Source of the DNA: Phoronis australis
Lineage: Eukaryota > Animalia > Phoronida
DNA: 64,000 nt
Direction of reading: 5' to 3'
NCBI GenBank assembly: GCA_002633005.1
Contig: NMRA01000066.1
Coordinates: forward strand, 651,199-715,198
A program made the translations under genes and the position numbers. Shown piece by piece: positions 24,310-61,255 of the stretch (within the stretch, counting starts at the first letter, position 1; each line of letters starts with the position of its first letter). The notes under the pieces were generated by a model. The model was given only the letters and a program-made list of their open reading frames with translations. It did not search any database and was not told the DNA's origin.

Positions 24310-24506
24310 TCAATTTCCATGGCTGCCGCACTTCCGGCAACGGCATGTGGGACAGCCGTTTTTGTCGTAGATCCTGCCGCATGCACATATGTTCTTACAC
24401 AGAGGTGGGCACGTTGGACACGGTTTGCACTTGCAGATTGGACAACCCTTAACTATGACGTTACCACAGGGACAGAATATCTCACAGACAGGAGGACATT
24501 GCTTTT
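24310..24506 (-). CDS. Copy 1 exon 4 (two antistasin-like modules)
   Basis: KQCPPVCEIFCPCGNVIVKGCPICKCKPCPTCPPLCKNICACGRIYDKNGCPTCRCRKCGSHGN*; not in the ORF track; 197 nt in all three copies. Confidence 0.9.
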
Positions 24507-27500
24507 CTGAAAGTTAAAGAAACAAAGAATTGGAACAAGCTGAAAGCGTATGGATCCAACAGGCATCACATTATCATTGTAAGTTGGTGTCAGTACGGTA
24601 GTGATTAAGATATCAATTCTTTGGTAATGAAAACTATGCCTTTTAAAGTTCGAAATCCATCGTATAGCCATTGTAGTTACCGACAATCAGGGTCTAAATG
24701 ACGTCATTTTATGGTCAATCAAATGTTGACCATCTGTCCTTGCCCAAAGTACTCATGTCAAAACAACGGAATTGACGTCATTATTAACGGGGCACTCAAA
24801 GTATCAACTCACAAGACTTGTATGGGCAATATCACAACGAAGTGATAGAAATATGATTTTTCATATGAGAAGTCTTTCTAACCAGGTGCAACTTTTGACT
24901 AATTCTTTGAAATTATCAATCGAAACTGACTTTCATAATCATTTTAGGAAAATGCAACTAAAATACCTTTGGCCAATTTTTGAAATACATTTAGCGCTAC
25001 CTTTGCCGCGAAATCGCACCCTTAACATTTTCAAACGCGAATTACCAATTGCTTAAACTGACTTTGTCCTTATTGATCATTTTAGTGGTATAGATTTTTG
25101 TTTTCTCTGATGTTTGTGCTTGTAAGTCTACAGACAAAACCCCAAGGACCCTCCGAAAGGTGGGGCGGAAGACGGGTCCAACCACACTGATGTAACGCAT
25201 CGACATAGGTCAATGAGATCGATTACAGCAACACAACAGCGTACTTGTACATGTACATGTAGCAAGACACTGAAGAACGTCAGTGGGCTGAAGATACAAG
25301 ATACACCAAGGCAGGATAAAGTGTCTCTGGAGGACTGCAAGGCAGCTCTTGGATGCAATATCCAGTGAGACGGCAGAGAAACTGAGTCAGGAAACGAACC
25401 ACAGCCCCGAAAACCTCAAGTATAAGCAACCGACGCATTGGCGGAGAATGATGTCACGTCGGTTGTGACACAATTTCTTCGGTTGTTGACGTAATACACT
25501 ATTCCACATATCGGATAGGATATGTCTTAATCCTCAGTTTCCGTTGCGGCTGTGGGACTCAATTATCTCATGAATCGCCTCTCTCATCACACGGAAAACC
25601 AATCCTCCAAAACACTGCTGAGTCATAGTTATATCCACAGGCAGGGCAACGTTGTTGATAAACCCTACTTTTAAGCGCCTGCTTCGTTTCCCCCAACAAA
25701 GGACGGTGCACATTCGCTTTTCGTTCAGTGTAAAAGACAAACCACCAAAAGGAACGAATGTGCAGGGCCCTATGTTGGGGAAACGGAACAGGCGCTTAAA
25801 AGCAGGGTTTATATAAACACCGTCGCCATACCTATGGGGATAACTATGACGCAGCAGTGTTTATTCACCTTGCGCATCAGACCATGACTTTTTTCTGAAA
25901 AATGTGGTGATCCTTGATACTGAGGAGGATTGGTTTCCCCTTGGTGTGAGAGAGGCGATTCACGAGAGAATTGAGTTCCCCAGCTTCAACAGACACTAAG
26001 AACTAAGACAAAACCTATCAGCTATGTAGAATAGTGTACTACGTCATCAACCAAAGAAAGTGTCACAACCCGTGATAAAAATGTCCACCAGTGTCGACAC
26101 GCCAGCACTTCGGGTTCAGAAGATCTGTAAAAATCTCCGAGATGGGAACGCTACGTTTTTATTAGTATGCCGTTTGTTTGTGTTGAAGAAGTTTGGTTGT
26201 CTTTAATGGAAGACCATTGTAACACCTTCCACACTGTTTCCAGTTATGCATAGCATTAAAAACTTATTTATTCCGAAAGATCGAACATTGTTCATAATCG
26301 GGTCTCTATTGCGGTGACACTTCCAAAATTACGTAGGTGTGGGAAGCCGGGTGACAAGGGGGCAAACAACCTCTCGACCAAAATATCGGAAGGTGAATGT
26401 ACGTTTTCGACCCCAAATATTCCGGATAGTAATGAGTATCGATTAATTATTCAGTTTCGACACGCAAAATAACATTGAAAATAGAACACTCTCCACCACC
26501 ATGAAATTTTTCCTACGCCTATGTAACAAAGCAGTGATTAAGGCAATATTACACGAGTAATTAATTTTTTTCAAAGACAGAAATGTCTGCTGACCATTTT
26601 TGCAAGATGAATAATAAAAAAATGGAGCATTTCACTAAAATCTTTCACGCCTATTTTAAAAACGATTTTTGGATTGAGAATAAGGCTCCATTCGGTAAGT
26701 AATTTAGATAGTTATACTTTTGTTAATTAATGAAACTTCATCATCTCGGTATAATTTTTTAACGCTACTAAGTCTGCAAGTGATGATAAAGGGCTATGTC
26801 GTTTTGGTCGTCTGACCATCTCAACAAAGCAAAACACAACTTGAACGCATGGTGCTGGAGAATCACTTCGAAAATCGAAATGTTGCCCAGCAACTTTCAC
26901 CCACATGGAAATTGCGACAATCCACAGACAGTTGAATTCTTGCAGTTCAATGGTTTTTAATAACATACCAAAATATTGACAATTTTAAATTCATTTTGTT
27001 GGGGACAGGGATGTTTGCAAACTTCAAACTAAATCAAATCAATTTAACTGCGGTAAACTTTCCTATCGAATCAGTAAGTGAATTTCAATATTAAAAAGTG
27101 TTACACTACAAATAAAATCCTACATCTTAATTTTCAAAGTCAGCACTGCAAGTGGCGTTAAAAGGAAGGGGTGCTGATGTAACTTACCACACATACATTC
27201 TCTTCTCTGGGCAAAGAACCAGATCGTCTTTCTACCGTGTGGAGTCCCACGTCTGCATCTGCCTCGGGCAAGAAAGGTGACGTCGCGCGTTTGACATTTT
27301 CCCAGAGGACTGAAGTTGCACACAGCACTGTAGAATGGTCAAAACATTACCTGGGACAAGATTACATTATCTTTTCTATGTTAAGGTGCAGGTTAAGAAC
27401 ATTTGACGTTTTTGATACAGACCAGCATCCTGTTTTGTGTATTTTATTAGTTGACTGTGGGCAATAACATTCAGGTGACTGAGATTTCAGAAAATTTGAG

Positions 27501-30500
27501 AAGTCCTTCCGACTTTTAATTTTTTTTAGAGAGGGACAGCGAAAGGCAGAGCGATATGGGAAGGAGGTGGAGGGGATGTAGACGGGGGGGGGGGAGAGGA
27601 AGCAGGGAAATTCTTATTATTCGACATCTGCTACCATCTCTAAATGTCATGACCAAATCTGTCCAATATGATGTCATCAGGTTATTGAATACCTTTCCGG
27701 ATAAAGTCAAAGAGGCAAAAACATTGGCTGCAGTAGATTAACTTTGCCGGATCCGCCTGTTAATATCTGGATAAGACATCTGATTGACGGTGTTTTTGCC
27801 TGTTGATCCAGCTCAACAAGTAAAATCCATCAAGTGTACCTAGTTTGTATATCCCAATGAACTGGCGTTTTCAACTGAAGGCCACGTCGTGTGCATCCAT
27901 GAAAAAATACACGGAATGCCCTGAAGAAGTACGAGTATGCTTGGATATGGCCCAAGTCTTCAGGCACTAACAGCCACCTTTACAGTTCACAGTGTTTTAC
28001 AAAACGTTCTCCCACTAGCAAATAATCGACACTCCTATGAGCGAGAACCTGTGAAAGGGTTGCGATTGTGACTGTGGCTTACACTGTTGTGTGGACTAGA
28101 CTTAAAAATCCATTACGACTGACCTATTCATTTCTAATTCCTAATAATTTAAGACGATTACTAGATGACAATGTTAACAACCAACATGAGTGCAATTGTG
28201 AGGCCTTCAGAAACGTACACAATTCTTGGTGAGTTTTTGTTTTTAAGTAATGACGCGATTGAGTTGTATAACGATGCCTGGGCACGCCAGAACCAAGTAC
28301 TCCATTTTGACCTTAACAGAGAATTTCCATCAAGGTTTATTTTTTCTACTTGAAAGTGATGAAGCAAATTTTTTCTTTTTCTCTGCTTATGAGCCATTCC
28401 AGTTGAGGTTCATGAGTTCACATAAATTTCGAGAACCGAAGGGTTACAATCATTGCACTGTCATGGCACTCATCGCCTACTGTAGGTCTGATAAATGTGT
28501 TTCATATAATGTACCTCATGATAAATGTGGGTTTCATATCGAGAGTCGCAGTATGTAAATGATCTTACGACCAGCCTCGAAACCTACATGTAATGACTTA
28601 TATTCATTCTATTCGTGCTTTATTAGAAAAATGTTTCTAAATAAGAATGAACACCCACTTACTTTTTCGGACGACACACTGTGTTCTTTACAGGCCTAGT
28701 GTAATATACGCCTCTGTATGACCGTGAATAGTAAGTCCGCTTTTTACACGGACGGGCAGGTTCATGCCAATTATGTTGTCGCTTCTGAAGCTTCTCTTGC
28801 ACCTCTTCCTCCATGTTTGTTTCTTTAGCTGTCAAATCGTCAGCAAACGTCTCCTCGGTGTTTCTTATGTCGAAGTCACCTAGTCCAACCTGAGCGTCAT
28901 TCGTGACATCATCTGCACGCGCGTACGCGTACAGGCATACCAGGATTAGGGCAAGGAATGCCTGTAAGTTCAAATATCACGCTTAGTTACTAACACTCAG
29001 TTGTCATGTAAATGAGCCTTGTTCAGATCACTATTCATAGAGGGCTATAACAATAAGTGACACTATTTGCTAACGTCACTTCCTCAATTCATTCCTTGCT
29101 GGCAACCACCAGCATGACACGCACATGCACACTACAGGTCTTTGCAACAAAACGTATACCTTAATGGCTAAGAATATCTTGTTATACCAGACGATATTCC
29201 ATTTGCACCTGTAAAGTAGTTATCAACCACGTTCCATTCTCCAAAACAAATTTCTAGCAATTTCAGAAATATTACATTTACGAAACGGCGTGATTGTCTT
29301 CTTGCTTTATGTCAGAAGTGAAATTGGTTTTAAAAATTCATTTAGACAAATCAAACGTTCCAGAACATTTCGAATTTGATCTGAGACATTCAATCCGTGA
29401 ACAGGAAATTATTTAGCCGGGACAGATGCAATAACAACCTGACAGTTCTTCGTGAGTCCAAAGATCTCTTCTAAATTGTGTACGAATTAAGATGAGAAGA
29501 CCATTTTTATACGGGCAAATGACTTGAATCAGACAGTGTTTTATTACAAAAAAGTTAAAACATGAATTTAATGTCACTTTGACATCCTGAATCCTTAATC
29601 CCACCTTTTCGACTAGCTCGTGTAATTAGTTAATTATTTTAAAAACTATAGATTTTAACTTAGTAAAAGTGTACATTTTCTGAAAGAATTTGATGCTTGA
29701 CCTTTTTAACAAACTGACATTAATTGGGTAACGTGACCACGTCTACTGTCTTTTGGTAAAATTGAACAAAACAATTGCATCGATAACGTAATACGAAGGC
29801 CCACACGTGCCATGAAAGAAATTGAATCTGCTAACACGGTTTGCCAGTCTGTTCATAAGGATTGCCAATCTATTCATAAGGATTGCCAATCTGTTCATAA
29901 GGATTGCCAATCTGTAATTACGGATTTCTGATCTCTTAATAAGGATTTCCAAGCTGTATTATGGATTGGCAATTGGTTGGTTTCGACCAGTGACTCATAC
30001 GCAGAGCATTGTAGTGGAAGTGCCATCGACCTTTGAGAATCGTGTTGACTTAAGACAGAGATTTGACAAACTTTGTAGATTTAAAGCACATGCTATAGCA
30101 CTTTTATAAATATTTTATATGTATGTTACAAGTTTTAATTTCGATATTGAAATAGTTAAACATTCTACGCACTAATTTTGTTTTGTATGCTCTCGTTTTT
30201 GTTGCAGTTTGTTTCCTGGGAAAAAGGACAAGTTCCCTCTCTTTGTATTTAACTTATTTCAATCAGTTAAATACAAACATCTAGATCTAGATTCATCAGC
30301 CACCTATATTCCATCGTAGCGATTTGAAAAAAAATATGTGCCTGTACATGATTTGCATTTTGTTTCTTTAAAACCGCATGCTGCGCCATCTTTCTTTTGG
30401 TCAATGTTTTGCACAAAACCATTCGTATTTGTTTCTTTTTAATACGAAGTGTTAGCGTTCCTAATTAGACATAAAATCATGGACCGAATGGTGTTCATGC

Positions 30501-32999
30501 TTTGCTAGAACACGAACTGATGTTATTCTAATTTGATGTTAGTGATTTCGGCATTACCTAGACTACTTGGCACTGCACGGGGCTTTAAGGGGCGTGATTA
30601 CCTTGTTGTCTTATGTCAAAAGTGAAATTGGTTATAATAATTCATTTTCTAACTCAGTACAATTCTTGTCAGCATTGTGCATTTGCATATATTCTTTTCC
30701 AACGTTTCGACAAAAAGCACTTCACCATTCCCAACGAAAATATCCAACCACCACAGCATGGTCAGACGTATCACGAACAATAGCTCACTTGCGAGTTTCT
30801 CGCTAGTCACTGTGACGTCACCGCAAAGGGGGCAAAACCCGCCATATTGCTCTTGTTTTGCCCCGAGTCTTTGCTACACACGCTAAAACTTACTGGAGTT
30901 CTTATGGTGAATTTTACGCTTAAAACGTTAAAACAACTTAAGATATGGTAGATGGGTCGTGGAATAACTGTGAATAGACGAAGAAAATGTGACCTTGTTA
31001 TGTTGTGNAGGCTCTCCTTATTAGCTAGGGTTTCACTGATTCTGGGGTCGGTTGAGCTCACCCTTTGGGGATATCTTTGACCTCTGCATGAAACTACTTT
31101 ACAAGGGACCTTTGGTTTAGTTGTTCGTGTTACTTGTAACCATTCTTGAGGTGGTAGGAAATTTTTCTTGAAAGTGGTGAAGTGAATTTCATGGAAACGT
31201 TGAACATGTATGTATGTAAATTCACGATGCTAACAACAATTATGCTGAGTTTTCTAATTTTACTAATGTGACCCAAAACAACTATCGCTAATAATTCATT
31301 TTGACAAGTCAAACGTGCCGGTACATATCAAATTTGATCTGAGACATTCAGTTCGTGATCTGGACATTAATGGACCTAGTATGAATCAATAACAACTTGA
31401 CAGCTCTTTGTGAGTCCAAAGATTTCTTCTAAGCTGTGTAATAAATAAGATGAGACCATGTTTGTACTAGTAAATGACTTAAATCAGACAGTATTTCATT
31501 ACCAAAAACATTACTTTAAATCAGCTCTAACATCCTTAAACTTTTATCAGACTTTACCGACTGGCCCGTGTAATTATCAAACTACTTGAAAACACATAGA
31601 TTTTAACTCAGTAAAAGTATACATTTTCTGAAAGTAAAGGTAGCGTAGAATTTGATGCTTAAACTTTTTAACAAACTGCCGTGATTTGGGTACAGTATCT
31701 TTTGGTAAATTTGAGCAAGACAGAGATATCAATATCGTAATACGAAACCCCAATAGTGTCATGAAGAAATAAAATTTGAATCTGCTAATACGCTTTTTCC
31801 AATCTGTGAATATGGATTGCCAATCTGTTATGTCGGATTGTCATTCTGTTATTACGGATTGTCAATCACTTATTACGGATTGTCAATCCGTTAATTATGA
31901 TTGGAAATCCGTAATAACAGACTGGAAAACCATATTAACTGATTGGCAACCCGTATTAACAGTTTGGCAAAATGTAATTACAAATTGGTATTCCCTATTA
32001 ACACATCCATTTTTATTTTTTCTTGGCACGAATGGGCCTTCGTATACCCTTCCATACTCTTTATGTTATTTCTGATTTTCCTGTGTACAGTTGTAAAGCA
32101 AACTGCCAACAAAAGAAGTAAAAATATTACCCTCAGGCACATGGTAAAATGAACGTGGTGGAAGTGAAATCAACGGTGAAATAAACAATGTCAGAGAATG
32201 TGAATAAAAAACGGCAGAGGTCTAACTGAACACAACCATCGTGCAGTAAGCTGCTTATTCAGCACAAATTTTGAGACTAATTAATAGAGGCTAAAAATCT
32301 GAAACCGAAATGGGTCATTTTATACAAGCGAGAAGTCGTGTTGCTTGTTATCTCGTTCTATTTATTTTCCAGCCATGTTGGTGTAAAATGATCTTGAATG
32401 GACACACCTTTCAAATGCAAGGACAACTGTCGGGATAGAGAACATAACGTGCGTTCAATGTAACGCTATTCACAAGAATGAATACGAAAACATTTATCCA
32501 TAAGACTTGTGAATTCTCATTAACAACATTACATTTGGCCACTGGTCGCAATCGTTACCAACATGGGTTGTTCCTCATGACAAGGTTACGAGACTTTATA
32601 TTGTGATAGTAAATAAGTACATTCCGTCTATCACCTGGTTTGTTGTTGTCTCTTGCGATCTTTTTCAGCGCATATTTGTCTATCAGATAATCATTTTATA
32701 TGTTGTTGTTATAGTACACATTATTAATGGTGCTGCCGCTTGGTTTAATGCCAACATGAGAGTCAAACCTAGGTACGAAAGTCCTGATGTTATTATCAAC
32801 AAACGAATTAGTGTAACAATTGTTAAATAGAACTTTTTATACGACATATGGCAAGCTATGCCTACCCCTTTTAAAACGAATGAGGAAAGGTGAGAGGCAT
32901 TTGATAACAAATTAAAAATTGAAACCAAAAACACAGTATATAGATTGCGTTCTATATCAATACACTGAGAACAAGTTGTTTACTTACAAACTTTTTCAT
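24310..32999 (-). CDS. Copy 1: secreted cystine-knot (NGF/Spaetzle-like) + 2x antistasin-like precursor, 215 aa
   Basis: Exons 32999-32988 (MKKF), 28961-28663, 27327-27188, 24506-24310; GTAAGT donors and CAG acceptors, phases 0/2/1, 648 nt open. MKKFAFLALILVCLYAYARA-DDV...LQKR-QHNWHEPARPC...TVCRPKNAVCNFSPLGKC...GRC...ECMC-EKQCPPVCEIFCPCG...GCPTCRCRKCGSHGN*. An N at 31008 lies in intron 1. Confidence 0.88.
25430..26160. mobile_element. Inverted pair of Penelope-like (GIY-YIG C-terminal) fragments in copy 1 intron 3
   Basis: + strand ~25910-26040 reads ILDTEEDWFPLGVREAIHERIEFPSFNR, like PLE GIY-YIG tails; ~25450-25715 is the inverted homologue of ~25770-26085. Confidence 0.6.
27188..27327 (-). 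CDS. Copy 1 exon 3 (cystine-knot core)
   Basis: AVCNFSPLGKCQTRDVTFLARGRCRRGTPHGRKTIWFFAQRRECMC; 140 nt in all three copies. Confidence 0.9.
28663..28961 (-). CDS. Copy 1 exon 2 (signal peptide, acidic propeptide, start of knot)
   Basis: ttacag acceptor; AA|GTAAGT donor. The track's TTG start and TAA stop are intronic. Confidence 0.9.
29790..29975. mobile_element. Partial MITE (TACGAAGGCCCA terminus) with 21-bp tandem repeats
   Basis: tacgaaggccca end followed by aggattgccaatctgttcata units; same family as 31741-32044 and 43898-44265. Confidence 0.6.
31741..32044. mobile_element. MITE with tacgaa...ttcgta termini (Tc1/mariner-like TA ends) and internal 21-bp repeats
   Basis: tacgaaaccccaatagtgtc ... 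gcacgaatgggccttcgta; internal (cggattgtcaatc...)n. Confidence 0.65.
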
Positions 33000-33512
33000 C
33001 TTGACCGCACGGCAGAATGAGATAAAGTACAACACATATCCTTCACAACCCCCTTGTTTGTATGCAAGTACATGCGAGATCGCGATGTCATGACCTTGTC
33101 ATAACCTCAGTTTTGTTCTGCAACGCGGAACACTTCATTTTAAAAAGTCACAAATTTCATTTTTTGATGTTCCTTACATACCGGAAAGAAAAGGTAATTT
33201 ATGTCGAGAAAATTCACTTGTCCATAATGAATGAACCAGCCTAGATTCCCTGGCTCCTTTTAAAAAGTCTGCAGACCTTGGCGTCCAGTTTAACCATGCT
33301 GTGTCTCATTAAAACCGTGAATATTCGAATTCGTAACAAGCCCACCAAGTGATTTCCTGGAGAACTGTTTGTCCAAGTATAATCGGGTAAAGAGAGTTTT
33401 CTAAATAAATTGTAGTCTTAAAGAAAACGCCACTACTGATACACTTTATAAATGAAATAAACAAATAATAAAAACTATGCCTCGTTTCATTAGGGTAGAG
33501 TCAATGCTGTAT

Positions 33513-33533
33513 GGAATTTCCCAGGGTTTTCCT
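33513..33533 (-). promoter_or_regulatory. Paired kB-like sites ~515 bp upstream of the copy 1 ATG
   Basis: GGAATTTCCC (=GGGAAATTCC) at 33513-33522 and GGGTTTTCCT at 33524-33533; not preserved in copies 2 and 3. Confidence 0.3.
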
Positions 33534-40014: not shown

Positions 40015-40211
40015 TCAATTTCCATGGTTGCCGCACTTACGGCAATGACATGTAGGGCAGCCGTTTTTGTCGTAGATCCTGCCGCATGGACATCTGTTTT
40101 TACACAGAGGGGGGCACGTTGGACACGGTTTGCACTTGCAGATGGGACAACCCTCATCCATGACGTTACCGCATGGACAGAATATCTTGCAGACGGGAGG
40201 ACATTGTTTGA
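40015..40211 (-). CDS. Copy 2 exon 4 (two antistasin-like modules)
   Basis: KQCPPVCKIFCPCGNVMDEGCPICKCKPCPTCPPLCKNRCPCGRIYDKNGCPTCHCRKCGNHGN*. Confidence 0.88.
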
Positions 40212-43200
40212 CTGGAACTTAAAGGAAAGAAAAATTGGAACAAGCTGAAGCTTATGGAACCAGGAGGCATCACTTCCTGATATCAACGTAAGTTGGCCTC
40301 AGCACGGTTGTTATTCAGATATCATTTCACTGGTAATGGTAATCTATCGTATAGCCATTTTAGTTACCGACAATCAGGCTCTAAATGACGTCATTTATGA
40401 TCAATCAAATGTCGACAATCTTCCCTTACCCAACGTACTCATAACGATATCACAACATTCATTGCTCTTGATTGGGATTTGTCAACGCCTGATCGTCACT
40501 CTGTCAGCAAACAAATCCCAATCACGTTTTATGCCCCTTGACGTCATTATTTACTAGACCCTGAAAGTTTCAATTTATATCGTCACTCGATTGCCAATAC
40601 CACCACGATGTGACAGAAATAGCAATTTTCTCTCGTGTGTGGTATTTGTAGGTACGGCTGTGTTGGGATACATCACAAGGCAGACAAGGGAATGTCCAGG
40701 AAATGGCTTTTGGCGTACACAAACATCTACTAAGTATTTCCGAAAGTTGACTCTTTATATAGTGGGTCAGAAAATATCCTACAACATAGCAAATTTTGGG
40801 ACAAATTGTATTTTGAAAATGTCAACTTCCATCCAAAAGACGCCCACTCAAAAGAAGAAGTTTGGATCAACGCATTTTAGATAGGTGTTAATGACTGTTA
40901 AGTAAACTACGCTCATAAATTCAGACTTTTTAAAGTTTTAAAAGCTCTTTCGTGCATTTTATATAATAGTTGGAACTTTTACTCTGGATTGTAAATTTTC
41001 GTGTGCGACGAAGAATCAAAGTTGGTTTAAAGATGATATCCTTCGTGCCAATTGCCGTTTCTTTATGCTTAAGAAGTTTGGTTGTCTTAAGTGGAAGATC
41101 ATTGTAACATCTTACATATATGCAGAGCATCAAACAATTTTTTTTCTAAAAAAGAGAAAGATCCTTTTCAACATCGGGTCTCTATTGCGGGGACACTTCC
41201 AAAATTATTTAGGTGAAGGAAGCAGGGAACAAGGGGTGAGCACCCCCTCAACCAAAATGTTGGAAGGCTGATACAAGTTTTCGACCCCAATTATTCCGGA
41301 TAGTAATGACTATAAATTAATTATTCAACGTTTGGAGACGCAAACTCTGTTTTAAAATAAAACTGAAAATAGAACACTCTCCCCCCACCATCGAATTCTT
41401 CCTACGCCTATGTAAAAAAAGCATCGATTGATGTAAAATTAAATGTGAAATTAATTTTTTCAAAAGACAGAAAGATCTGTTGACAATTTTTGCATTATGA
41501 ATAGTAAAAATTGGGGGAAATTCACTAAAATCTTTCACGCTTATTTTAGAAAAGATTTTCGGATTGAGATTAATGTTTTACTATACCGTAAGTGATTTTG
41601 ATTGTTATACTTCATTAATTAATGAAACTTCATCATTTCGGTAGAGTTTTCTAATGCTACTAAGTCTGCAAGTGATGATAACAACTTTTAGTCGTCTGAC
41701 TTTCTTACCCAAACACCACACAACTTGCACGCATGCTGCTGGAGAATCCCTTCTGAACACCGAAATATTTCCCAACAACCTTCACGCATATGAAAATTGC
41801 GACAATCCACAGAGCTGAATTCTTCGAGTTCTATGGTTTTTAATAACAAATGTTGATCATTTTAAATTGAGGTTGGTATATAATAGGGGCGCTTGCAAAC
41901 TGAAATAAATCAATTTGACTGCTGTAAACTTTCCTATCGTAGCAATAATTGAACTTAAATATTAGAAAGTGTTCCACTGTATATAAAATCCAACATGTTA
42001 GTTTTTATAAAAAAGCACTGCACGCGGCGATAAAGGGGAAGATTGGTCAAACTTACCACACATACATTCTCTTCTCTGGGCAAAGAACCAGATCGTCTGT
42101 CTACCGTGTGGTGTCCCACGTCTGCATCTGCCTTGGGCAAGAAAGCTGACGACGCGTGTCAGACATTTTCCCAGCGGACGGAAGTTACACACAGCACTGC
42201 AGAATGGTCAAAACATTACCTGGGACACGATGATATTATCTTGTCTATGTTAAGGTGCTGGTTAAAAACAATTTGAGTTGTCTAATACAGACCAACACCT
42301 TGCCTTGTGTAACTACAGAGTTTATTAGTTGAATGTGGGCAATACCACTCAGGTGGCTGGTATTTCAGAAAAAATTAAAATACCTCTCGACTTTTGGTTT
42401 TGTAGTTCAAATGCAAGATAAAAAGGGAAGAGCGAACTGCAGAGGAAGAGGGGAGGTAGGTAGGTGAGCGGGNAGAGGGGGAAAGGTGTCAGGGAGAGAG
42501 AAAGCAGAAAAATTCTTGTGAGTCGACCTCTACTACAATCTCTAAAAGTGATTTAAGTCACAATCAGATCCGCCCAGTATGATGCCATTAAATTAGTGAA
42601 TGCCTTTCCGGATAAAGTCAAAGATGCTAAAACCTTTGCTGCGTTTAATTGACTTTGAAGGCCCCACCTGTCATCACAGTTGTAAAAACCATACTTAAAA
42701 ATCCATTGCGACTGGGTTATTCATTTCTAATTCATAATTATTTTAGACGATTACTGATTAGACGGAGTTATTCATTTCTGATCTACAATCATTTTAGATG
42801 ACAATGTTAAAAACTAACATGAGTGGACCTACGTAAATGTAAACATAAGTTTAGTTAATTAAACCGTGTGATTATTTGTTCTATTAACATGATGTATCAT
42901 ACTCTAGTAAGTTGTAAAGATATGTTGTTGGGGCTACCCAACCCAGCCCGATCTACTTCTCACTAATGACATGCTTTATGGGTAAATAAACGTATTGAAA
43001 AAAAACATGGGTGCATTCGTGAGCCCTTTAAAATCACACGCAAGCCTTTTGTTTTTAAGCAAGGACGCGATTGAGGCGTAAAACGATGTGAGTGCACACC
43101 AGAACAGAGTATTCTATTTTGACCTTAACTCAGAATTTGTTTTTGCGTTTTATTTCCTCTGCTTGATCGTGAACAAGCAAACTTACATTTTATTTCTTTT

Positions 43201-45441
43201 CCCCTGTTTCTGAGCCACTCTGGTTGACCAACTTCAGGACCATGAGTTCAAAATAAATTTCGGGAACCGAAGGGTAACATTCATAACACTGCTGTGCCAC
43301 TCCTCGCGTACTGTAGGTCCATCAAATGTGTGTCATTTAATGTACCTAATGATAACTGTGGGTTGTCACATCGAGAGTCGGAATGTGAAAATGAATTTGC
43401 GACCAGCCTCGATACACACATATAATGACTTTTATTCATTTTGTATTACAAAAACGTATCTCAATAAGAATGACCATCCACTTACGTTTTCGGACGACAT
43501 ACTGTGTTTTTTACAGGCCTAGCGTAATACACCCCTCTGAAAGACCGGGAATAGTAGGTTCGCTTTTTACACGGGCGGGCAGGTTTATGCCAATTTGCAA
43601 ATTGTCGAGTCTCAAGATCATCTTGCGATTCTTTCTCCATGCTTGTATCTTTAGCTGTAAAGTTTTCAGCAAACATCTCCCCGGTGTTTCTTATGTCGAA
43701 GTCACCTAGTCCATCGTTAGCCTCATTCGTGACGTCATCCGCACGCGCGTGTATGTACAGGCATACCGCGATTACGGCGAAGAAATCCTGTAAATTCATC
43801 TATATCACTCTTAGTTGCTAATACTATGGTGTCATGTAATTCGACCTCGTTCCTATCAATTCATGGACGATTGAGCAAAACAGAGATCATTATCGTAATT
43901 CGAAATCCCATTACTGTCATGGAAAAATATATTTTGAAATTGCTGATACGCTTTTTCCAATCTGTTACTACGGATTGTCAATTTGTAATTACGTATTGCC
44001 ATTCTGTTATTACGGATTGCCAAAATGTTAATACGGATTGGTGATCTGTAATTACACATTGTCAATCTGTAACTACGGTTTGCCAATCTGTGATTACAGA
44101 TTACCAGTCTGTTAGTACGGATTTCCAATCTGAAAATACGGATTGCCAATCTGTTAATAAGGATTGGCAATCCGTAATAGCAGATTGGCAATCCGCATTA
44201 ACAGTTAAGCACTCTGTGTTAACAGATTAAATTTTTATTTTTCACGACTCTAATGGGCCTTCGTATAAATGAACTTGGTGGAACTGAAATCAACGGTGAA
44301 ATAAACAATGCCAGCAGATAGAAGGGCATACAAGCTGAGAGTGTGAATGTAAAAAAAAACGACAGAACAGAACCATCGTTCGGTAAACTGCCCATTCAGT
44401 AAATTTTTTCTGACTAAAATTCTTTAACCGAAATGGGTCATTTTCTACAAGCGAGTAGCCTTCGTATACTCTTCCATACTCTTTATGTTATTTCTGATTT
44501 TCCTGTGTAGAGTTGTAAAGCAAATTGCCAACAAAAGAAGTAAAAAAATTACCCTCAGGCACATGGTAAAATGAACGTGGTGGAAGTGAAATCAACGTTG
44601 ACACACACAATGTCAGAGAATGTGAATAAAAAAAACGGCAGGAAGTCCAGAGGTCTACATCTGTATCTGAACTTAACCATCGTGCAGTAAACTGCTAGTT
44701 CAGTACAATTTTTGAGACTAATTAATAGAGGTTTAAAAATCTGAAACCGAAATGGGTCATTTTCTACAAGCGAGAAGTCGTGTCGCTTGTTATCTCGTTC
44801 TATTTATTTTCCAGCCATGTTGGTGTAAAAATGATCGTGAATAAACCTGCCTTTCAAATGCATGGAAAACAGTCGGTAGAGAGAACAGACCGTGCGTTCA
44901 ACGTAACGCTGATCACAAGAATAAATACGAAGACATTCATTCATAAGACTGGTGAATTTCCATTAAAAACATTACATTTGACCACTGGTCGCTATCTTTA
45001 CCAACATGGGTTGTTCCTCATGGCAAGGTTACGAGACTTTATATTCTGATAGTAAATAAATACGATCCGTCTATCACCTGGTTTGATGTTATCTCTTGCG
45101 ATCTTATTCAGAGCACATTTGTCTATCAGATAATCATTTTATATGTTGTTGTTATGGTACGCATTCTTAATGGTACTGCCGCTTGGTTTAATACCAACAT
45201 GAGAGTCAATCCTAGGTATAAACATCCCGAGGTTATTATCAGCAAAAGAATTAATATAACGATTGTTAAATAGACGTTTTATACGAAATATGGCAAACTA
45301 TGCAAACCCCCGTTAAACAGAATGGGAAAAGGTGAGAGGCAATTGATAACAAATTAAAAACTGTAACCACAAACACAGAATATAGATTGCGCTCTATGTC
45401 AATACACTGGGAAAAGTTGCTTTACTTAAAAACTTTTTCAT
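40015..45441 (-). CDS. Copy 2: cystine-knot + 2x antistasin-like precursor, 216 aa; exon-1 donor mutated (possible pseudogene or alternative start at 43799)
   Basis: Exons 45441-45430 (MKKF, followed by TTAAGT instead of GTAAGT), 43787-43486, 42196-42057, 40211-40015; exons 2-4 intact with all Cys; in-frame ATG at 43799 gives MNLQ-DFFAVIAVCLYIHARA. An N at 42473 lies in intron 2. Confidence 0.75.
42057..42196 (-). CDS. Copy 2 exon 3 (cystine-knot core)
   Basis: AVCNFRPLGKCLTRVVSFLAQGRCRRGTPHGRQTIWFFAQRRECMC. Confidence 0.88.
43486..43799 (-). CDS. Copy 2 exon 2 (including the in-frame ATG extension)
   Basis: ATG AAT TTA CAG|GAT...; AC|GTAAGT donor at 43485. Confidence 0.85.
43898..44265. 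mobile_element. MITE with 21-bp internal repeats in copy 2 intron 1
   Basis: attcgaaatccca ... taatgggccttcgta; repeats ggattgccaatctgttaata. Confidence 0.65.
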
Positions 45442-45626
45442 CTTGACCGCACGGCAGAATGAGATAAAGTACAATACATGTACATATCCTTCACAAACAC
45501 CTTGTTTATACGGAAGGATATGCGAGGTCGCAAAGTCATGACCTTGTCAAAACCTCAGTTTAGTGCTTTGCGTCGTAGCACACCTCATTTTAAAAATTCG
45601 TAAATTGTATTTTGATGCTCCTTACA

Positions 45627-47439: not shown

Positions 47440-48010
47440 ATCGCCCCACAAACAAAAAAGTTCATGTTCAATTCAACGTTTCGTCTTTCCATTAGACATC
47501 ATCAGGATCATATTTACAACAATTTAGGACAACAAGTGCCAACATACAGCTCAGGTAACATCCATAGAGTGAAGTGAGAGATACATACATGTAGAATATA
47601 GTCAGTAGCTGGTTATCACCATAGTTGCAGGATCATTGAGCTCTGCATGTTATTCAGAGAATCAGTGGCATGCCGGTTCTGAATGCCCAATGACTCTTTA
47701 ATGTACAGAAACTCCTTATTAGATTCTCTGCAGATAATAATAACAGAATTGGCTTGGTGATTGTAGGTAATACAATGCCTATATATGTTAATTTTCTCTG
47801 AGTTGTGATGTTCTTTCAACCTGTTACAGAGGCGTCGCTGTGTGAATCCTATATAGAATTGCTTACAGTTGTCACATTCAACCTTATACACAACATTGCT
47901 CTTTTTCAATAAAGGGATGGGTGACTTCAGTTTACACAACATATTGGAAAGTTTCCGAAGGGGTTTGAAAACAACTATCAGTTCAACTGCTGGGTCCACA
48001 GGCGTCCTCA
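47440..48010 (-). mobile_element. 3' fragment of a Penelope-like retroelement (GIY-YIG endonuclease)
   Basis: ORF 47616-47999: VVYKVECDNCKQFYIGFTQRRLCNRLKEH ... YIKESLGI ... SLN, a GIY-YIG with CCHH-type zinc ligands. Confidence 0.85.
47473..47507 (-). ncRNA. Minimal hammerhead-ribozyme-like motif in the Penelope 3' region
   Basis: Minus strand CUGAUGA-U-GUCU-AAUGGAA-AGAC-GAAA-CGUU: core boxes, 4-bp stem II, palindromic AACGUU stem III; stem I weak. Confidence 0.5.
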
Positions 48011-51000
48011 GCTTCTGATCGTCACCAATACACTACATATAATACTACAAGGTATGACACTCCTGACTAGAAATTCCACGGGTGCTTCACTTCAGCCGTC
48101 CACAGCAAATATAAAACTCAATAAATTTACACAAAACAGAGGTTCAACAAACCATGATAAATTGTTCTTTCTCCCAATACCATTCATGGTGTCCTGTTCC
48201 GGCGACTTCGTAAGAAATTCGCAGTCAAATAACAAAAATGTTCACAAAAAGCCCCCACACACTTTCATTGTGGGCCGCTCGAGGTCAAGGACTGTACGGA
48301 AATTGCCGGTTTGTCATGTAAAATCACGATGTCGATAACTCTACACTTAGCCGCCAGTAGAAAAACTATTGAGTACTTCCGTAACTCACCGGCAATTTCC
48401 GTACCGTATTTATCCCACACGCGTCAAAATTCCTAAGTTTCTTTCATTTTTTCCGCAGATTTTTTAAATACTTCACAAACTGTTCACGAGGCGGATCACA
48501 TCCTATATGTGTGTACTTGCGCGTTAGGCTGCACGTTTTCTTTAGTAAAAGAAACGGTTTTAAATGTGACGATTTATTACTTGAAGAGATAACAAAGATG
48601 AAAGCAAGGGTTACATTTCATTGAACTTGTAACATCTCCTGAAAATAGTTAAATAACAACAATATTTTGATATTGTAGTTACCGAGGAATCGGCGCCTGA
48701 GTTGCAGACGATAAAATATTTAGCGAATGAAAACTGAGACAGATCTGTCATAGAATTAACAGTCCTGTTACGGTTAAGCCATGATTGTATGTTGAGCGTT
48801 ATTTACACTGCTATAATTTTATTACTTTAAACTATTTTCCGAAAGTTTGGTGATCGAACCGGCTAACGACGTCGAGACGACACAGACCTACCTTTTGAAC
48901 TTTCCATGTCACAGGTCACTGTTGAAGTAGTGCGGGAGGTGAATACGGAAGACTTTATTACATGGCCGTATTTCGTTCGACAGATTGAACACGTATGGGA
49001 TAAAAACTAGGGAGTACGATACCCGTCATATGAATATGCTTGCAAACTAAACGACACATTTAATAATCAAAAGTACACGGGAACGTAATTTGAGAAATAG
49101 CAAAGGTCATTCATGAATAAATGAATCCCAAATGAGTCAACGTTTGGTGTAATGAAAGTTTCTCTATAGTGTATTGTCTCATGACCTGGAATTAACAGTT
49201 ATTAAACTTTAGCAGTCCGTCAATTGTAGCAAATAATGAGATTGATGGCACTCTGACATAAATCCTATTATTTGGGGAAATACAATTATACAGCCCTTCA
49301 TCCTTCATTTCCAACTCCTAGTTAGTTCTTACCAAGCCCGATGGGAGCGCTGCTTGTTCTTTCCCTCCAGCTTCATGTTGGCCCAGCCTCAAGCAACAGT
49401 ACATTCACTCGTAAGTTTTCGTAATTAGACAATTTTATACCTCTCCCACCCTCCCTACCCAGGGTCCCGCAAAATCTCAAATCAACCGATTTATACCTTT
49501 CCCGCGCTCTCTCCCTTTTGTCGAACAAAATCTGCTGTTGGTTATTGTCGTTTTTACTGTCACTGCTGGTACCTCCTTCAAAGCAGGAGTGTGTTACCGT
49601 CCAGCAATAACCGACGTCATTGGCTAGCGACCCGACCTGTACTCTAGCGTCCATCCCTGCAGTTTGCTTCTCTCCACCCCGGTCACAGCTCTCGGCACAT
49701 ACTGAGCTACAACACCACGTTCCTTACAATATCTATTTTTATCACTCCGGCTGGTCTGCTCACTCAGCTTGTCCGGAACCTGCTTCGCAGGTTGTTATAG
49801 CCCAGTTGGCTCTTTGGTGTACCCACTTGGTACTTTATATGATATTTGCCCATTTGGCAGTTTGTACCCGTTATTGAATTTGCCATTTTGCTCGATCCAC
49901 TTGGTAGGCAATCGGCCAATACCCATTTGGTATTATGTACCCATTTGGTACTATGCTAAACTGTGCCACTTACATGTAGTATCCGATACTCAATTACACA
50001 TTGGGTATCGTAAATGTGTGTGTTATCTCTTATAATTAAGGAACCCATCTGGTTCCTTCCGTGAGATATTTACTTGTAGAGCTGTGACCCTGAAATTTCC
50101 AATACAGCTTGAAATATATATTATTCTTATTATTTTATTTGTCCCCAATAATTGTAAAGTGAACGAAGGACAGGTGTCATTGCAGAACGTCTCTTGTTGT
50201 GCGCTGTCTAGTAATCTAAACTAGTCAGGAGCTTGATAGAAACAAAGCTGGTCTCACATATTCACAAAGTGGGCATTTATTTCGTGCTTTAAAACATGAA
50301 TGTTAATAAATTCTACAGTTGGTGTACATTTTCCTCTCCAAGTCGCGTTCATGGTTTACACCATCAAAGATCAGCTTTGACTGATAAGAGGCACTCCTTC
50401 CAAAAATTAAGTCGGTTTGGAACTCCTCTTCAACTTGCCGATGCAATGGTTAAACAGATCTGCCTAAGAAGGAAAATTATTCACAATACTGAGTGGATAA
50501 GGTAATCGAAACCCGCGTTTGTCACCAGTAAACACATATGGAAAACTTTGTTTCCACCAGGAGGTGTTCAGAAATAAAGGTGCTTCTTTTTGACAACTGA
50601 AATACATTGAAAGCGGAAAGCAGTTGACAAATATGAGGTCGTTCCTGTAATAAAGTGCTGTAGGCATATGTAAATCAGACCCTGTTTTTAATAAATGCCA
50701 TGACCGGTCGAGACTGCACATTTCACTGGCTTTTTGATAGACAACATTTGCGATGGTGTTAAGAAATGACGCAGATAAAAGTACGATCTCTATGTCTCTG
50801 GTGGCATTATTTTGGGTAAATCTAAGTATTTGCTGTCGCGACAGTTTTTATGACAGTGTAATGATGACCACGCTATAAACACGCCACATCAAATCTGCAT
50901 GTCAAAACCGCTACCTACATGTACTCGCACATGTAGTATGGCAGTAATGAAATTATTTACTAGCTGTAACTACAAGTCTGTAAAAGGAAATTAGTGATTG

Positions 51001-53029: not shown

Positions 53030-53820
53030 CCAGGCGATTTGAGAACTTGGGACAGAGGTGCTTAAATTTAAGCGAGATTTATTTAACACTTGTGCTTAAT
53101 TTTAAGCCAGAGTAGGAGATGTAGATTCCAGAACTTGTACAGCTATTCTTAACTTTAAGCGGGATTTATGTTACACTTGCCCTTAATTTTAAGCCAGACT
53201 AGGAGATGCCCGGCGATTCCAGAACTTGTACAGCTATTCTTAACTTTAAGCGGGATTTATGTTACACTTGCCCTTAATTTTAAGCCAGACTAGGAGATGC
53301 CCGGCGATTCCAGAACTGTTACAGCTATTCTTAACTTTAAGCGGGATTTATGTTACACTTGCCCTTAATTTTAAGCCAGACTAGGAGATGCCCGGCGATT
53401 CCAGAACTGTTACAGCTATTCTTAAATTTAAGCACGATTTGTTACTTACACTTGTGCTTAATTTTATGGTTGAGTGGGAGATGGCGGTTTTAAAACTTGT
53501 ACAGCTATTCTTAATTTCAAGCGGGATTTATGTTACTTACACTTGTGCTTAATTTTAAGCCAGAGTAGGAGATAGCAATTTTGAAACTTGTACAGATATT
53601 CTCAAATTTAAGCGGGATTTATGTTACACTTGTGCTTAATTTTAAGCCAAAGTAGGAGATGTTGATTCCGGAATTTGTACAGATATGCTTAAATTCAAGC
53701 GGGGTTTATGATACTTACATGTACACTAACCTTGTGCTTAATTTTAGACTCGAGTATTAGATGATGCTTTTAAAGCTTGAACAGATATTCTTAAATTTAA
53801 GCGGTATTTATGTTACTTGT
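53030..53820. repeat. Minisatellite, ~91-bp unit, ~8-9 copies
   Basis: Unit ...cttaactttaagcgggatttatgttacacttgcccttaattttaagccagactaggagatgcccggcgattccagaacttgtacagctatt; central three units near-identical. Confidence 0.9.
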
Positions 53821-55696: not shown

Positions 55697-55893
55697 TCAG
55701 TTTCCATGGCTTCCACACTTCCGGCAAAGACATGTAGGGCAGCCGTTTTTGTCATAGATCCTGCCGCATGCACATCTGTTCTTACACAGAGGGGGGCACG
55801 TTGGACACGGTTTGCACTTGCAGATGGGACAACCCTCAACCATGACGTTACCGCATGGACAGAATATCTTGCAGACGGGAGGACATTGTTTGA
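55697..55893 (-). CDS. Copy 3 exon 4 (two antistasin-like modules)
   Basis: KQCPPVCKIFCPCGNVMVEGCPICKCKPCPTCPPLCKNRCACGRIYDKNGCPTCLCRKCGSHGN*. Confidence 0.9.
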
Positions 55894-58800
55894 CTGGAAC
55901 TTAAAGCAAAGAAAAATTGGAACAAGCTGAAGCTTATGGATCCAGAAGTCATCACTTCCTGTTATCAACGTAAGTTGGCCTCAGCACGGTTGTTGTTCAT
56001 ATAGCAATTCACTGGTAATGGTAATTAGGCCTTTTAAATATCAAAATCTATCGTACATGTATAGCCATTGTAGTTACCGACAATCAGGCTCTAAATGACG
56101 TCATTTATGATCAATCGAATATTGACAATCTTCCCTTACCCAACGAACTCACAACGACATCACAACATGCATTGCTCGTGATTGGGATTTTTCAACGCTT
56201 GGTCGTCGCTCTAACGGTCACCAAACAACCCTCCATCACGTTTTATATCCCACTACGCCCGAACTTCAGAATTGACGTCATTATTAACTAGAACCTCAGA
56301 GTTTAAACTTACACCAATTGTCGATTGTCAATATCACCATGATGCGACAGAAGTAGCAGTTCTCATGCGAGAAATCTTTTTAACCAGTTGTATCATACAA
56401 CTTTTGACGAATGCTTTGTAATTAGTTATCAATCAAAACTGAATTTCATAATCTTTACGGGAAAATACAACATAGATACTTGTGGCCAATTTCTGAAATT
56501 CATTTAGCGCTTCCTTGTGCTGCGAAATTGCACCTTTGAGATTTGTAAACGCGAATTGCCAATTTTTTAAACTAATTTTGTCCTTGTTGATCATTTTGTG
56601 GCATCGACTTTTTTGTTCTCTTTGATGCTTTGGCATTTAAGTCTACAGACAAACGCCCTAAGGACCCTCCGAGAAGTGGGGCGGAAGTTGGATCCAAACA
56701 GACGGATGTAATGGACCAACACGGATCAATGAGATCGATTATAGCAACACAACAGCGCACATGTAGCAAGACACAGAAGAATACATCAAAGCAGAATGAA
56801 GTGTCTTTCGAAGATGGCAAGGCAGCGCTTGGATGCAATGTCAAGTGAGACAGCAGGTGAGCTGAGTCAGGACACTAACCACAGCACCAATTTATGCAAC
56901 CAATGGGGATGCAAGCCTTCCCAAAGAGAGGCCACCCACCTGAAGAAGGAAAAATGCAATCAAAACATAAATCAATTTAGGGACATGCTGTATACTATTG
57001 ATACAGTAGCGTAGCGTTCCCATTTCGAAGACTTCTACCGATCGTCTTAAGCCGAAGTGCTGGCGTTTGGGCCTTGGCGGAAAATGCTGTCACGTGTTCT
57101 GTAACGCATTTTCTTTGGTTGTTGATGTAATACACTAGTTCACACATATGATAGGTTTTGTGAGCACCCCCGCAACCAAAATGTCGGAAGGCTGATAAAA
57201 GTTTTCGACCCCAACTCTTCCGGATAGTAAGGACTATCAATTAATTATTCAAAGTTTGGACACGCAAACTTGTTTTAAAATAAAACTGAAAATAGAACAC
57301 TCACGCCCCACCATCAAATTCTTTCTACGCCTATGTAAAATTGAATGTGAAATTAATTTTTTCGAAAGACAAAAAGATCTGTTGACAATGTTTGCATTAT
57401 GAATAATAAAAATTTGGAGCATTTCACTAAAATCTTTCACGCCTATTTCAGAAAAGATTTTCGGATTGTGATTAATGTTTTTCTATACCGTAAGTGATTT
57501 AGATAGTTATGCTTTTGTTAATTAATGAAACTTCATAATCTCGGTTTACTATTTTAACGCTACTAAGTCTGCAGTTTATGATAAAAACTATGTCGTTTTG
57601 GTCGTCTGACTATCTCAACCAAACAAAACACAATTTGAACGCAGTGTGCAAGAGAATCTTTTGAACACCGAAATGTTTCCCAGCAACTTTCACCAACACG
57701 AAAATTGAGACAATCCACAGAGTGTTGAATTCTTTTATTTTCTTTAGTTTTGGTAGGGACAGGGGTGCTTGCTCATCTCAAACTAAAACAAACCAATTTA
57801 ACTGCGGTAAACTTGGTTAATAGAGTCCAGGTCTTTGTAAATAGATGTCTGCGACAAATCCTGAAGATTAAATGGTCGGATAGAATCACAAATAAGGAGA
57901 TTTGGCGAAAAACTCGGCACGAGAGGGTAGAGGCTCACATAAAGCGGCGAAAATGGAGGAGGGTGGGACACACCCTCAGAAAAGCTGACGAAAGCATCAC
58001 AAAACAAGACCTGTACTGGAACCTGCAGGGAAGTCGTCGACGAGGCAGACCAGTCTAAACGTGGAGGAGGACAATGGAAGCCGAACTCCGTGAGACCGAA
58101 TACAACATGCAGCAAATAAAACAGATGGCGAACAACAGGATTCGATGGCGTTCGGTCACACGCGCCCTATCCACCACGAGGTGGCAAGCGTTTTAACTCA
58201 AGGTAAGTGAAACTTTCATATCGAAGCAGTAAGTGAATTTAAATATTAAAAAATGTTACACTATAAATAAAATCCAACATCTTAATTTTTAAAGACAGCA
58301 CTGCAAGTGGCGTTAAACGGAGGGGGGGATTGATGTAACTTACCACACATACATGCTCTTCTCCGGGCAAAGAACCAGATCGTCTGTCTACGGTGTGGAG
58401 TCCCACGTCGGCATCTGCCTTGGGCAAGAAAGGTGACGTCGAGCGTTTGACATTTTCCCCGAGGATGGAAGTTGCACACAGCACTGTAGAATGGTCAAAA
58501 CATTACCTGGGACACGATTACATTATTTTTTCAATGTTAAGGTGCAGGGTAAGAACATTTGACCTTTTGATACAGACCAACATCTTGTTTTTTGTGTCTA
58601 CGGAGTTTTTTAGTTGACTGTGGGCAATAACATTCATGGGGCTGAGATTTCAGAAAATTAAATGAGATGTCCTTCCGATTTTTGATTTTTTAGTTCAAAT
58701 TCAAGATTGGGGAGGGACAGCGAAAGGCAGAGAGAGAGAGGGGAGGGGCGGGGGGGTTGTGGGGATGCAGGGGTTGTAGACGTGGGGGAGAGGAAGCGGG

Positions 58801-61255
58801 AAACTTCTTGTTAGTTTACATCTGCTACAATCTCTAAACGTCATGACTAGATCCCTCCAATATTATGCCATTAAGTTATTGAATGCCTTTCCGGATAAAG
58901 TCAAAGATGCTAAAACATTGGCTGCACTAAATTGACTTTCCGGACCCACCTGCCATCTGGCTAAGACATCTGATGGACGGTGTTTTTGCCTGTTGAGCCA
59001 GCACAACAAGAAAAATCCATCAAGTGTACCTAGTGTGTATATCCCAATGAACTGGCGTTTTCAACTGAAAGCCACGTCGTGTGCGTCCATGAAAAAATAC
59101 ACAGAATGTGCTGACCGAGTACGAGTGTGCTTGGATGTGGCGGAATTATTTTACAAGGAATGTATCAAGTTAGGCTCAAATCTTTAGGCACTAACGGCCA
59201 GCTTTACAGTTCACAGTGTGTTACAAAATGTTCTCCCACTAGCAAAAGATCGATCACTCCTATGATTTTCATGGGTAGCGAAAATCTGTGAAAAGTTTGC
59301 GACTGCGACTATTCTTACACAATTGTGTGGACCAGACTTAAAAATAAATTGCGACTGATTTATTCATTTCTATATTCCTAGTAATTTATGACGATTACTA
59401 TATGACAACATTAAAAACCAACACGTGTGCAAAATTCTTGGTGAGTTTTTGTTTGTAAGTAATGACGCGATTGAGTCGCAAAACGATGCGTGGGCACGCC
59501 AGAACCAAGTACTCCATTTTGACCTTAACAGAGAATTTCTATCCAGGTTTATTTCCTGTACTTGAATGTGAGGAAGCAAATGTGTGTTTTTTTCTTTTTC
59601 TCCGCTCATGAGCCATTCCAGTGGAGCAAGTTGAGGTCCATGATTTCAAATAAATGTCGAGAGCCGAATGGTAACTGTCATTGCACTGTCATGCCACTTA
59701 TTGCGTACTGTAGGTCCGATAAATGTGTTTCATATAATGTACCTTATGATAACTGTGGGTTTTCTCATCGAGAGATTGGCATGAGCTGTCTTACTACATC
59801 TCCTGTAGCGCTTTTCATTTTCCCATCTTACCAGAGATTAGTATTTTTTTACCCTACTTATGTTTAGTCACTACCTAATACTTGTAATTGTATTAATTCG
59901 GGAAATATGTCGATCATAAATGAGCTTACGACAAGCCTTGAAACATAGGTGTAATGAGTTATAGTCATTCTATTCGTGTTCTAAATAAGAATGACCACTC
60001 ACTTACGTTTCCGGACGACACACTGTGTTCTTTACAGGGCTAGAGTAGTATACCCCTCTGTATGACCGTGAATAGTAAGTCCGCTTTTTACACGGACGGG
60101 CAGGGTTATGCCAATTAAATTGTCGTGTCTCAAGCTCCTCTTGTACCTCTTCCTCCATGTTTGTATCTTTAGCTGTCAAGTCGTCAGCAAACGTCTCGAT
60201 GTTTCTTATGTCGATGTCACCTAGTCCATCTTTAGCCTCATTCATGACGTCATCTGCACGGGCGCACGCGTACAGGCATACCAGGATTACGGCGAGAAAA
60301 ACCTGTAAATTCAAATATCACGCTTAGTTGCTGACACTCAGCTGTCATGTAAATCGGTCTCGTTTTAAAGCAAATTGCCAATAAAAGAAGTAAACATATC
60401 ACCCTCACATAATAAAATGAACGTGGTGTAAGTGAAATCAACGATGAAATGAACAGAGTTAGCAGATAGAAGGGCATACAAGCAGAGAGCGTCGATGTAA
60501 AAAACGGCACGAAGTCCATAGGTCTAACAGAACAGAACCATCGTTCGGTAAACGGCTTATTCAACACAGTTTTTTGTGACTTATTAATAGAGACAAAAAA
60601 ACCTTTGACAGAAATGGGTCATTTTCTGAAAGCGAGAAGTCGTGTTGATTATTGTCTGGTTCTATTTATTTTCCAGCCATGTTGGTGTAAAAATGATCTT
60701 GAATGGACCCGCCCTTCAAATGCAAGGACAACCCTCGGGAGAAAGAACATACCGCGCGTTCAGTTTAACGCTGTTCACAAGAATGAATACTAAGACTTGT
60801 GAATTCACATTAACAACACGACATTTGGCCACTGGTCGCAATCTTTACCGACATGAGTTGTTCCTTATGACAAGGTTACGAGACTTCATATTCCGATAGA
60901 AAATAATTACATTCTATCTATCACCTTGTTTGATGTTGTCTCTTGCGATCTTCTTCAGCTCACATTTTTTCTCAGATAATCATTTTATATGCTGCTGTTA
61001 TAGCACACATTCTTAATGGTGCTGTCTCTTGGTTTAATGCCAACATGGGAGTCAATCCTCCTAGGTATGAAAGTCCTGACGTGATTATCAACAAAAGAAT
61101 TAGTAAACTTTTATACGACATATGGCAAACTATGCCTATCCCCTATAAAACGAATGGGGAAAGGTGAAAAGCAATTGATAACAAAGCACAGAATATAGAT
61201 TGCACTCTAGGTTAATACACTGCGAACAAGTTGCTTTACTTACAAACTTTTTCAT
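55697..61255 (-). CDS. Copy 3: secreted cystine-knot + 2x antistasin-like precursor, 214 aa, intact and gap-free
   Basis: Exons 61255-61244 (MKKF), 60302-60007, 58483-58344, 55893-55697; canonical GTAAGT/CAG sites; 645 nt open. Confidence 0.9.
57815..58209 (+). mobile_element. 5'-truncated RTE-clade LINE in copy 3 intron 3
   Basis: QVFVNRCLRQILKIKWSDRITNKEIW...WRRVGHTLRK...WNLQGSRRRGRP*TWRR; AAACTT TSD (57809-57814 / 58210-58215); empty site in copies 1 (~27055) and 2 (~41925). Confidence 0.88.
58344..58483 (-). CDS. Copy 3 exon 3 (cystine-knot core)
   Basis: AVCNFHPRGKCQTLDVTFLAQGRCRRGTPHRRQTIWFFARRRACMC. Confidence 0.9.
60007..60302 (-). CDS. Copy 3 exon 2
   Basis: VFLAVILVCLYACARA-DDV...LETR-QFNWHNPARPC...TVCRPE; AC|GTAAGT donor. 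Confidence 0.9.

Follow-up and report, generated by a model that had tools for sequence, protein, structure and literature searches.

Three tandem genes on the minus strand

The window analysed here, a 64,000-nucleotide stretch of Phoronis australis contig NMRA01000066.1 (assembly GCA_002633005.1, forward-strand positions 651,199–715,198), contains three tandem paralogous genes on its minus strand, A (24310–32999), B (40015–45441) and C (55697–61255), each with four exons and each encoding a predicted secreted precursor in which a seven-Cys domain precedes two antistasin-type protease inhibitor modules. A six-frame scan of the window picked up the three minus-strand antistasin-like exons, and comparison of the window with itself displays three tandem blocks that are about 75–87% identical, introns included. 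Joining the exons by their coordinates gives open frames of 215, 218 and 216 amino acids for A, B and C, respectively; the intron phases are 0, 2 and 1 in every copy, and the paralogous proteins are 80–85% identical.

Splicing was measured in raw stranded RNA reads from three runs labelled with the same species (X1, X2 and X3; about one fifth of each was read, 11–13 million reads per run, and the paralogues partly cross-map). All nine exon joints are crossed by reads in all three runs, and first mates map to the plus strand, as expected for minus-strand RNA in a stranded library. The initial annotation, made from the letters of the DNA, had proposed just these three paralogues with four phase-compatible exons, and had singled out the exon 3–4 joint beforehand as the decisive check; reads crossing that joint are present for all copies (60–393 per run), with counts in X1/X2/X3 of 60/111/258 for A, 73/239/108 for B and 123/393/110 for C. 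The corresponding counts are 68/190/437, 44/97/96 and 115/326/19 for the exon 2–3 joints and 16/108/354, 21/52/57 and 6/47/10 for the exon 1–2 joints. By joint reads, some of them cross-mapping, copy A is dominant in X3 and copy C in X1 and X2, and rough arithmetic from the exon 3–4 counts puts each copy at about 40–300 reads per kb per million.

Exon 1 of copy A (32988–32999; joint 28960/32987) holds the start codon and the first four codons; that of copy C (61244–61255) is placed by the open frame and an RNA joint. Intron ends are canonical at eight of the nine joints, and the exception is copy B, whose exon 1 (45430–45441; joint 43787/45430, CT..AA) is followed in the window by a TT rather than a GT donor (45428–45429). 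Since reads are nonetheless spliced at that donor, the TT is an error in the window sequence or a rare allele. In copy A the exon 4 acceptor is shifted (24506), which leaves its linker two residues shorter.

Three further observations concern the 5' ends of these genes. RNA 5' ends pile up at 33005 (A), 45447 (B) and 61261 (C), mostly six bases before the start codon, with a minority in copy A about 50 bases further out. In copy B only, an in-frame ATG lies just upstream of exon 2 (43799), and translation from it would yield a different signal peptide. At 60302, 96 and 249 reads link exon 2 of copy C to an out-of-window exon 1 reading M-K-T-F, which stems either from an allele or from a fourth copy at some other place.

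Precursor layout, charge and selection

Exon 2 (A, 28663–28961; B, 43486–43787; C, 60007–60302) encodes the signal peptide, the propeptide and the beginning of the mature domain. In copy C the layout is signal peptide 1–20, propeptide 21–64, seven-Cys domain 65–149 and tail 150–216. The predicted signal is a hydrophobic N-terminus (Kyte-Doolittle 11-mer values of 2.9–3.5) that ends in A-R-A, and it is followed by an acidic propeptide of 44–45 residues with 14–16 Asp/Glu against 4–5 Lys/Arg across the copies (16 against 4 in copy C; net charge about −10). The secretory layout first proposed therefore stands; the basic cleavage site predicted ahead of the mature Gln is KR, a dibasic site, in copy A but TR, with a single basic residue, in B and C. 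The mature part has a net charge of +24 to +26, and the middle domain has an isoelectric point of 10.6–11.2 across copies (net +16 and 10.7 in copy C). The mature protein contains 23 Cys, an odd number, 16 of which are in the tail.

Ratios of nonsynonymous to synonymous change (dN/dS) between paralogues are 0.09–0.16 in the tail and 0.19–0.34 over the mature part, which indicates purifying selection, and 0.46–1.43 in the propeptide, which is relaxed. Synonymous divergence (dS) varies along the genes: between A and C it is 0.05 in the middle domain and 0.49 in the tail, and between B and C it is 0.32 and 0.16, respectively, so that A and C are nearest each other around exon 3, whereas around exon 4 the nearest pair is B and C; both patterns take in the intron flanks. 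This exon-wise mosaic of likeness points to a copy history that included gene conversion or unequal crossing-over.

The antistasin tail

Exon 4 (A, 24310–24506; B, 40015–40217; C, 55697–55899) encodes the tail and the stop codon. All three translations exceed the 21.2-bit gathering threshold of Pfam family PF02822 (27.3, 32.0 and 26.3 bits for A, B and C, respectively), and each contains two PF02822 stretches. The two antistasin modules of the initial annotation are thus upheld. Each module has eight Cys, spaced 3-3-1-7/8-2-1-2, which is two more than the six-Cys core and includes one after the final CxC; the ten-Cys pattern of MEROPS I15 type members is absent. The residue after the second Cys of an antistasin module, which we take to be the P1 residue and which is typically basic or hydrophobic in antistasins, is Lys in five of the six modules (Lys, Lys in B and in C; Glu, Lys in A). 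The C-K-x-x-C of module 2 aligned onto the C-K-V-K-C loop of bdellastasin (PDB 1c9p; E 0.042), whose Lys is presumably also P1. Because of these Lys residues, trypsin-type targets are predicted for the modules that carry them.

Among 195 candidate proteins we found 13 longer antistasin-like matches (P0001–P0013), with snail, Hydra, horsehair worm and mussel sources included. An acidic propeptide and a knot-like domain precede the antistasin modules in none of the 13. A pattern match had flagged such a domain in P0002; it was rejected, since the flagged stretch falls inside the antistasin repeats of that protein. One of the 13, P0009 (138 residues, secreted, lacking any knot domain), has the eight-Cys module variant. 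The tail is encoded alone on one exon after a phase-1 intron, so it was likely joined to the rest of the gene by exon shuffling.

The seven-Cys middle domain

Exon 2 contributes the first two Cys of the middle domain, and exon 3 (A, 27188–27327; B, 42057–42196, placed by the open frame and RNA joints; C, 58344–58483) contributes the second half of the domain, with Cys 3, Cys 4, an extra Cys and the final CxC. The spacing 23-6-7-12-19-1 is kept in all three copies, as originally read, and the gaps between the candidate knot Cys are 23/6/7/32/1. None of the six exon 2 and exon 3 translations, each a half domain, matched an NGF or Spaetzle family in Pfam up to E 10, and PDB sequence searches with the same halves gave no match for either. 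The kinship with NGF and Spaetzle that had been suggested is thus not recovered by these exon-wise searches, and the CQTRDVTFLA motif said to echo NGF is present in copy A and absent from B and C. Database searches found no true relative of the domain, and none outside the window; from its sequence it is an orphan.

The Cys gaps are nevertheless of knot type, since those of human Noggin are 22/5/7/35/1 and those of PTTH are 22/7/5/41/1. Of 200,000 random placements of seven Cys in 85 residues, 89 fit the narrow version of the knot windows and 376 the broad one (0.04–0.19%), the windows having been set post hoc. PMC11087794 describes the cystine-knot superfamily as two strand pairs tied by disulfides 1/4, 2/5 and 3/6, and as tolerant of great sequence change. 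In the best AlphaFold model of the exon 3 half (predicted local distance difference test score, pLDDT, 66; other four models 35–40), a long hairpin begins directly behind Cys 4 and runs into the CxC, and in that of the exon 2 half (pLDDT 58) one strand follows Cys 1 and another leads into Cys 2; in these low-confidence half-domain models the four predicted strands sit where a knot expects them.

For a comparison with Noggin, 118 metagenome loci were collected by a Noggin motif; a Cys filter passed 27, and visual inspection removed 5 of these as unrelated, which left 22 (all 12 checked members belong to PF05806). A profile built from 10 Noggins retrieves only Noggin and PTTH from the PDB, the latter at 23.4 bits, and 142 of 200 shuffles reach the hhalign score of the middle domain against the Noggins. 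From the F-W-P-R, Trp and finger-2 Cys pair that are invariant in 10 of 10 Noggins, the middle domain keeps only the Arg (in A and B) and one Cys. Because the profile reaches no further than Noggin and PTTH, these results exclude that branch for the middle domain and do not exclude the knot itself. The knot of the initial annotation is plausible by spacing and predicted half-domain strands, and the domain shows no significant likeness to the Noggin profile; on balance the models and spacing make a growth-factor-type cystine knot somewhat probable.

Other features of the window

Plus-strand reads cover 49376–50100 up to a depth of 160; loose read ends are numerous there, no open reading frame family is present, and this transcription is probably repeat-derived. 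A GIY-YIG fragment at 47616–48032 is a mobile-element remnant. Two stretches had no fitting Pfam match: 57729–58058, inside intron 3 of copy C, we take to be a LINE-like tail, and 21921–22121 is presumably a Cys-rich transposon-like fragment. A weak 7tm_1 match at 2962–3519 (E 0.009, below the cut-off) is perhaps a receptor fragment or chance.

A candidate cationic defence effector and its rivals

Our preferred reading, which we hold tentatively and at somewhat less than even confidence, is that these genes encode a protein secreted for defence, one that attaches to anionic surfaces and inhibits trypsin-like proteases at those sites. The signal peptide would export the protein, and the acidic propeptide would mask the cationic mature part until a cut after Arg leaves an N-terminal Gln. 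The seven-Cys domain would fold as a knot (Cys 1–4, 2–5 and 3–6), and the odd Cys could link two chains into a disulfide-linked cationic dimer, anchored by its cationic domain on microbial envelopes, mucus or matrix sugars. With the Lys that follows the second Cys acting, in each module, as P1 of a canonical inhibitor loop, such a dimer might present as many as four of these loops to trypsin-like proteases, whether microbial or belonging to host wound cascades.

Several points weigh against this. The high charge is compatible, too, with a heparan-binding growth factor or a matrix protein. Copy A has Glu at the predicted P1 of its first module, the tail modules lack the ten conserved Cys per domain of hirustasin-group inhibitors (PMC10671345), and for many antistasin-like domains no function is known (PMC12482156). 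In the middle domain dN/dS is 0.21 and 0.24 in two comparisons and 1.69 between A and C, the last on just three synonymous changes. As for the knot, the models are of half domains (pLDDT 66 in one of five, and 58) built from three near-identical input sequences. The Noggin profile gives the middle domain 4.8, 3.2 and 2.9 bits, equalled by 82, 163 and 173 of 1000 Cys-fixed shuffles, and the Cys-anchored score against 10 non-redundant Noggins (of which L021 was parsed wrongly at its end) has z values of 1.58, 1.12 and 0.95. The middle domain could indeed be some other disulfide-held beta fold of an orphan, cationic antimicrobial type, with its function as in the defence reading; this proposal cuts across the others below, and we regard it as a real possibility, though the less probable fold. 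It is in keeping with the fact that none of the knot families tested showed a statistical likeness, and with the low confidence of the half-domain models, but it would make the knot-type spacing, the terminal CxC and the four well-placed strands a coincidence.

The initial annotation had proposed a protease-activated cytokine or clotting-type protein, possibly a self-limiting immune or wound signal. Spelled out, the cytokine version would be a knot ligand (Spaetzle-, Trunk- or IL-17-like) of a Toll, Torso-type or IL-17 receptor, with a tail that shuts off the very trypsin-like protease by which it was activated. The Spaetzle layout, with signal, unstructured pro-domain, cleavage site, knot and one Cys left over for covalent dimerisation, is all here in predicted form, and in Spaetzle, as PMC9427763 describes it, the trypsin-like protease SPE cuts at the pro/knot junction and the dimer is covalent. 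The monobasic Arg site of B and C and the Lys at predicted P1 agree in specificity, and the sequence change borne by knot families (above) would accommodate the lack of a match. That lack nevertheless extends to every ligand family reached by the exon-wise Pfam and PDB searches and the Noggin profile, and no relatives were found outside the window, whereas receptor ligands are usually conserved. A level of about 40–300 reads per kb per million is, moreover, high for a receptor ligand. Because of this transcript level, the charge of the mature part and the acidic propiece, an abundant secreted effector is favoured over a self-limiting cytokine, which we consider unlikely; that the genes form a new knot-cytokine family with its own brake, in which a protease cuts at Arg and two Lys-P1 modules then stop the same protease, is rather unlikely too.

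Abundance, a masking acidic propiece, an odd Cys and a Tyr/Arg-rich first strand would also suit a structural, clotting or adhesive protein (coagulogen-like, mucus, egg coat or cement) whose cationic domain polymerises or cross-links, with the modules guarding it or serving as mere disulfide beads; eight-Cys variant modules do stand alone in P0009. Repeats and long low-complexity linkers are missing, however, Lys is retained at five of six predicted P1 positions, and sequence searches with the domain halves found no likeness to solved clotting proteins, so we judge this rather improbable. A toxin of venom or mucus, in which a disulfide-rich, cationic domain would act on another animal and the inhibitors would shield that domain or impede clotting, is quite improbable: signal, acidic propeptide, basic site and Gln start are a common toxin-precursor layout, the copies are tandem, and antistasins turn up (by titles) in the venom and toxic-mucus literature, but the copies are overall under purifying rather than positive selection and the searches made found no toxin relative. 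Least probable, and very much so, is a clip-less Noggin-like growth-factor trap, that is, a bone morphogenetic protein (BMP) antagonist with CRIM1-like antistasin modules. Noggin has the nearest spacing among those checked, the extra Cys lies near a Noggin finger-2 Cys, and aphid Noggin-like 1, which lacks the clip, remains a BMP inhibitor (PMC9071555); the invariant F-W-P and Trp and the second finger-2 Cys are nonetheless missing, and the profile score is at shuffle level, against 23.4 bits for PTTH.

Comparison with known systems

The genes form a real, highly expressed family that standard open reading frame views overlook. If the knot is real, they represent a new branch of the growth-factor knot superfamily and the first knot-plus-inhibitor fusion, none having been found in the searches made; if the functional readings hold, they supply either a protease inhibitor of invertebrate defence that is targeted to surfaces or, more boldly, a signal with built-in feedback. 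The weight of the finding is limited by its apparently narrow distribution.

In line with the initial expectation of an undescribed architecture, no paper or protein that joins antistasin to a knot-type domain was found in the open full-text literature and databases, a scope that leaves aside subscription papers and supplements. By title, antistasin is co-mentioned there with spatzle in a silkworm inhibitor survey, with noggin in a Hydra transcriptome preprint and with cystine knot in venom and secretion papers, and no paper there pairs it with neurotrophin.

With the antistasin inhibitors (PF02822; bdellastasin 1c9p; the Hydra, Pomacea and Gordionus proteins among P0001–P0013) the family shares two tandem modules, a basic residue after the second Cys, and predicted secretion; it differs in its eight-Cys modules, which only P0009 also has, and in their fusion behind an acidic propeptide and an orphan seven-Cys domain. 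Noggin, Noggin-like, Trunk and PTTH proteins (PF05806; PDB 1m4u, 5aoq) have similar Cys gaps, and Noggin shares the extra finger-2 Cys, but the present family lacks F-W-P-R, the second finger-2 Cys and a significant profile score, and is very basic with an antistasin tail. Spaetzle and the neurotrophins have in common with it a signal, a pro-domain, a predicted basic cleavage site, a terminal CxC and a spare Cys for a possible dimer (PMC9427763), whereas here neither half of the domain has a Pfam or PDB sequence match, the acidic propeptide is short (44–45 residues) and inhibitor modules follow at the C-terminus. The CxxCC core of PDGF and VEGF is absent from the middle domain. VEGF-C and VEGF-D precursors do carry a Cys-rich tail behind a knot, though that tail is a different repeat from antistasin, and CRIM1, a large vertebrate membrane regulator, has antistasin modules and binds knot growth factors with no knot of its own. 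Within the searches made, an orphan and probably knotted domain joined to known inhibitor modules is a new combination.

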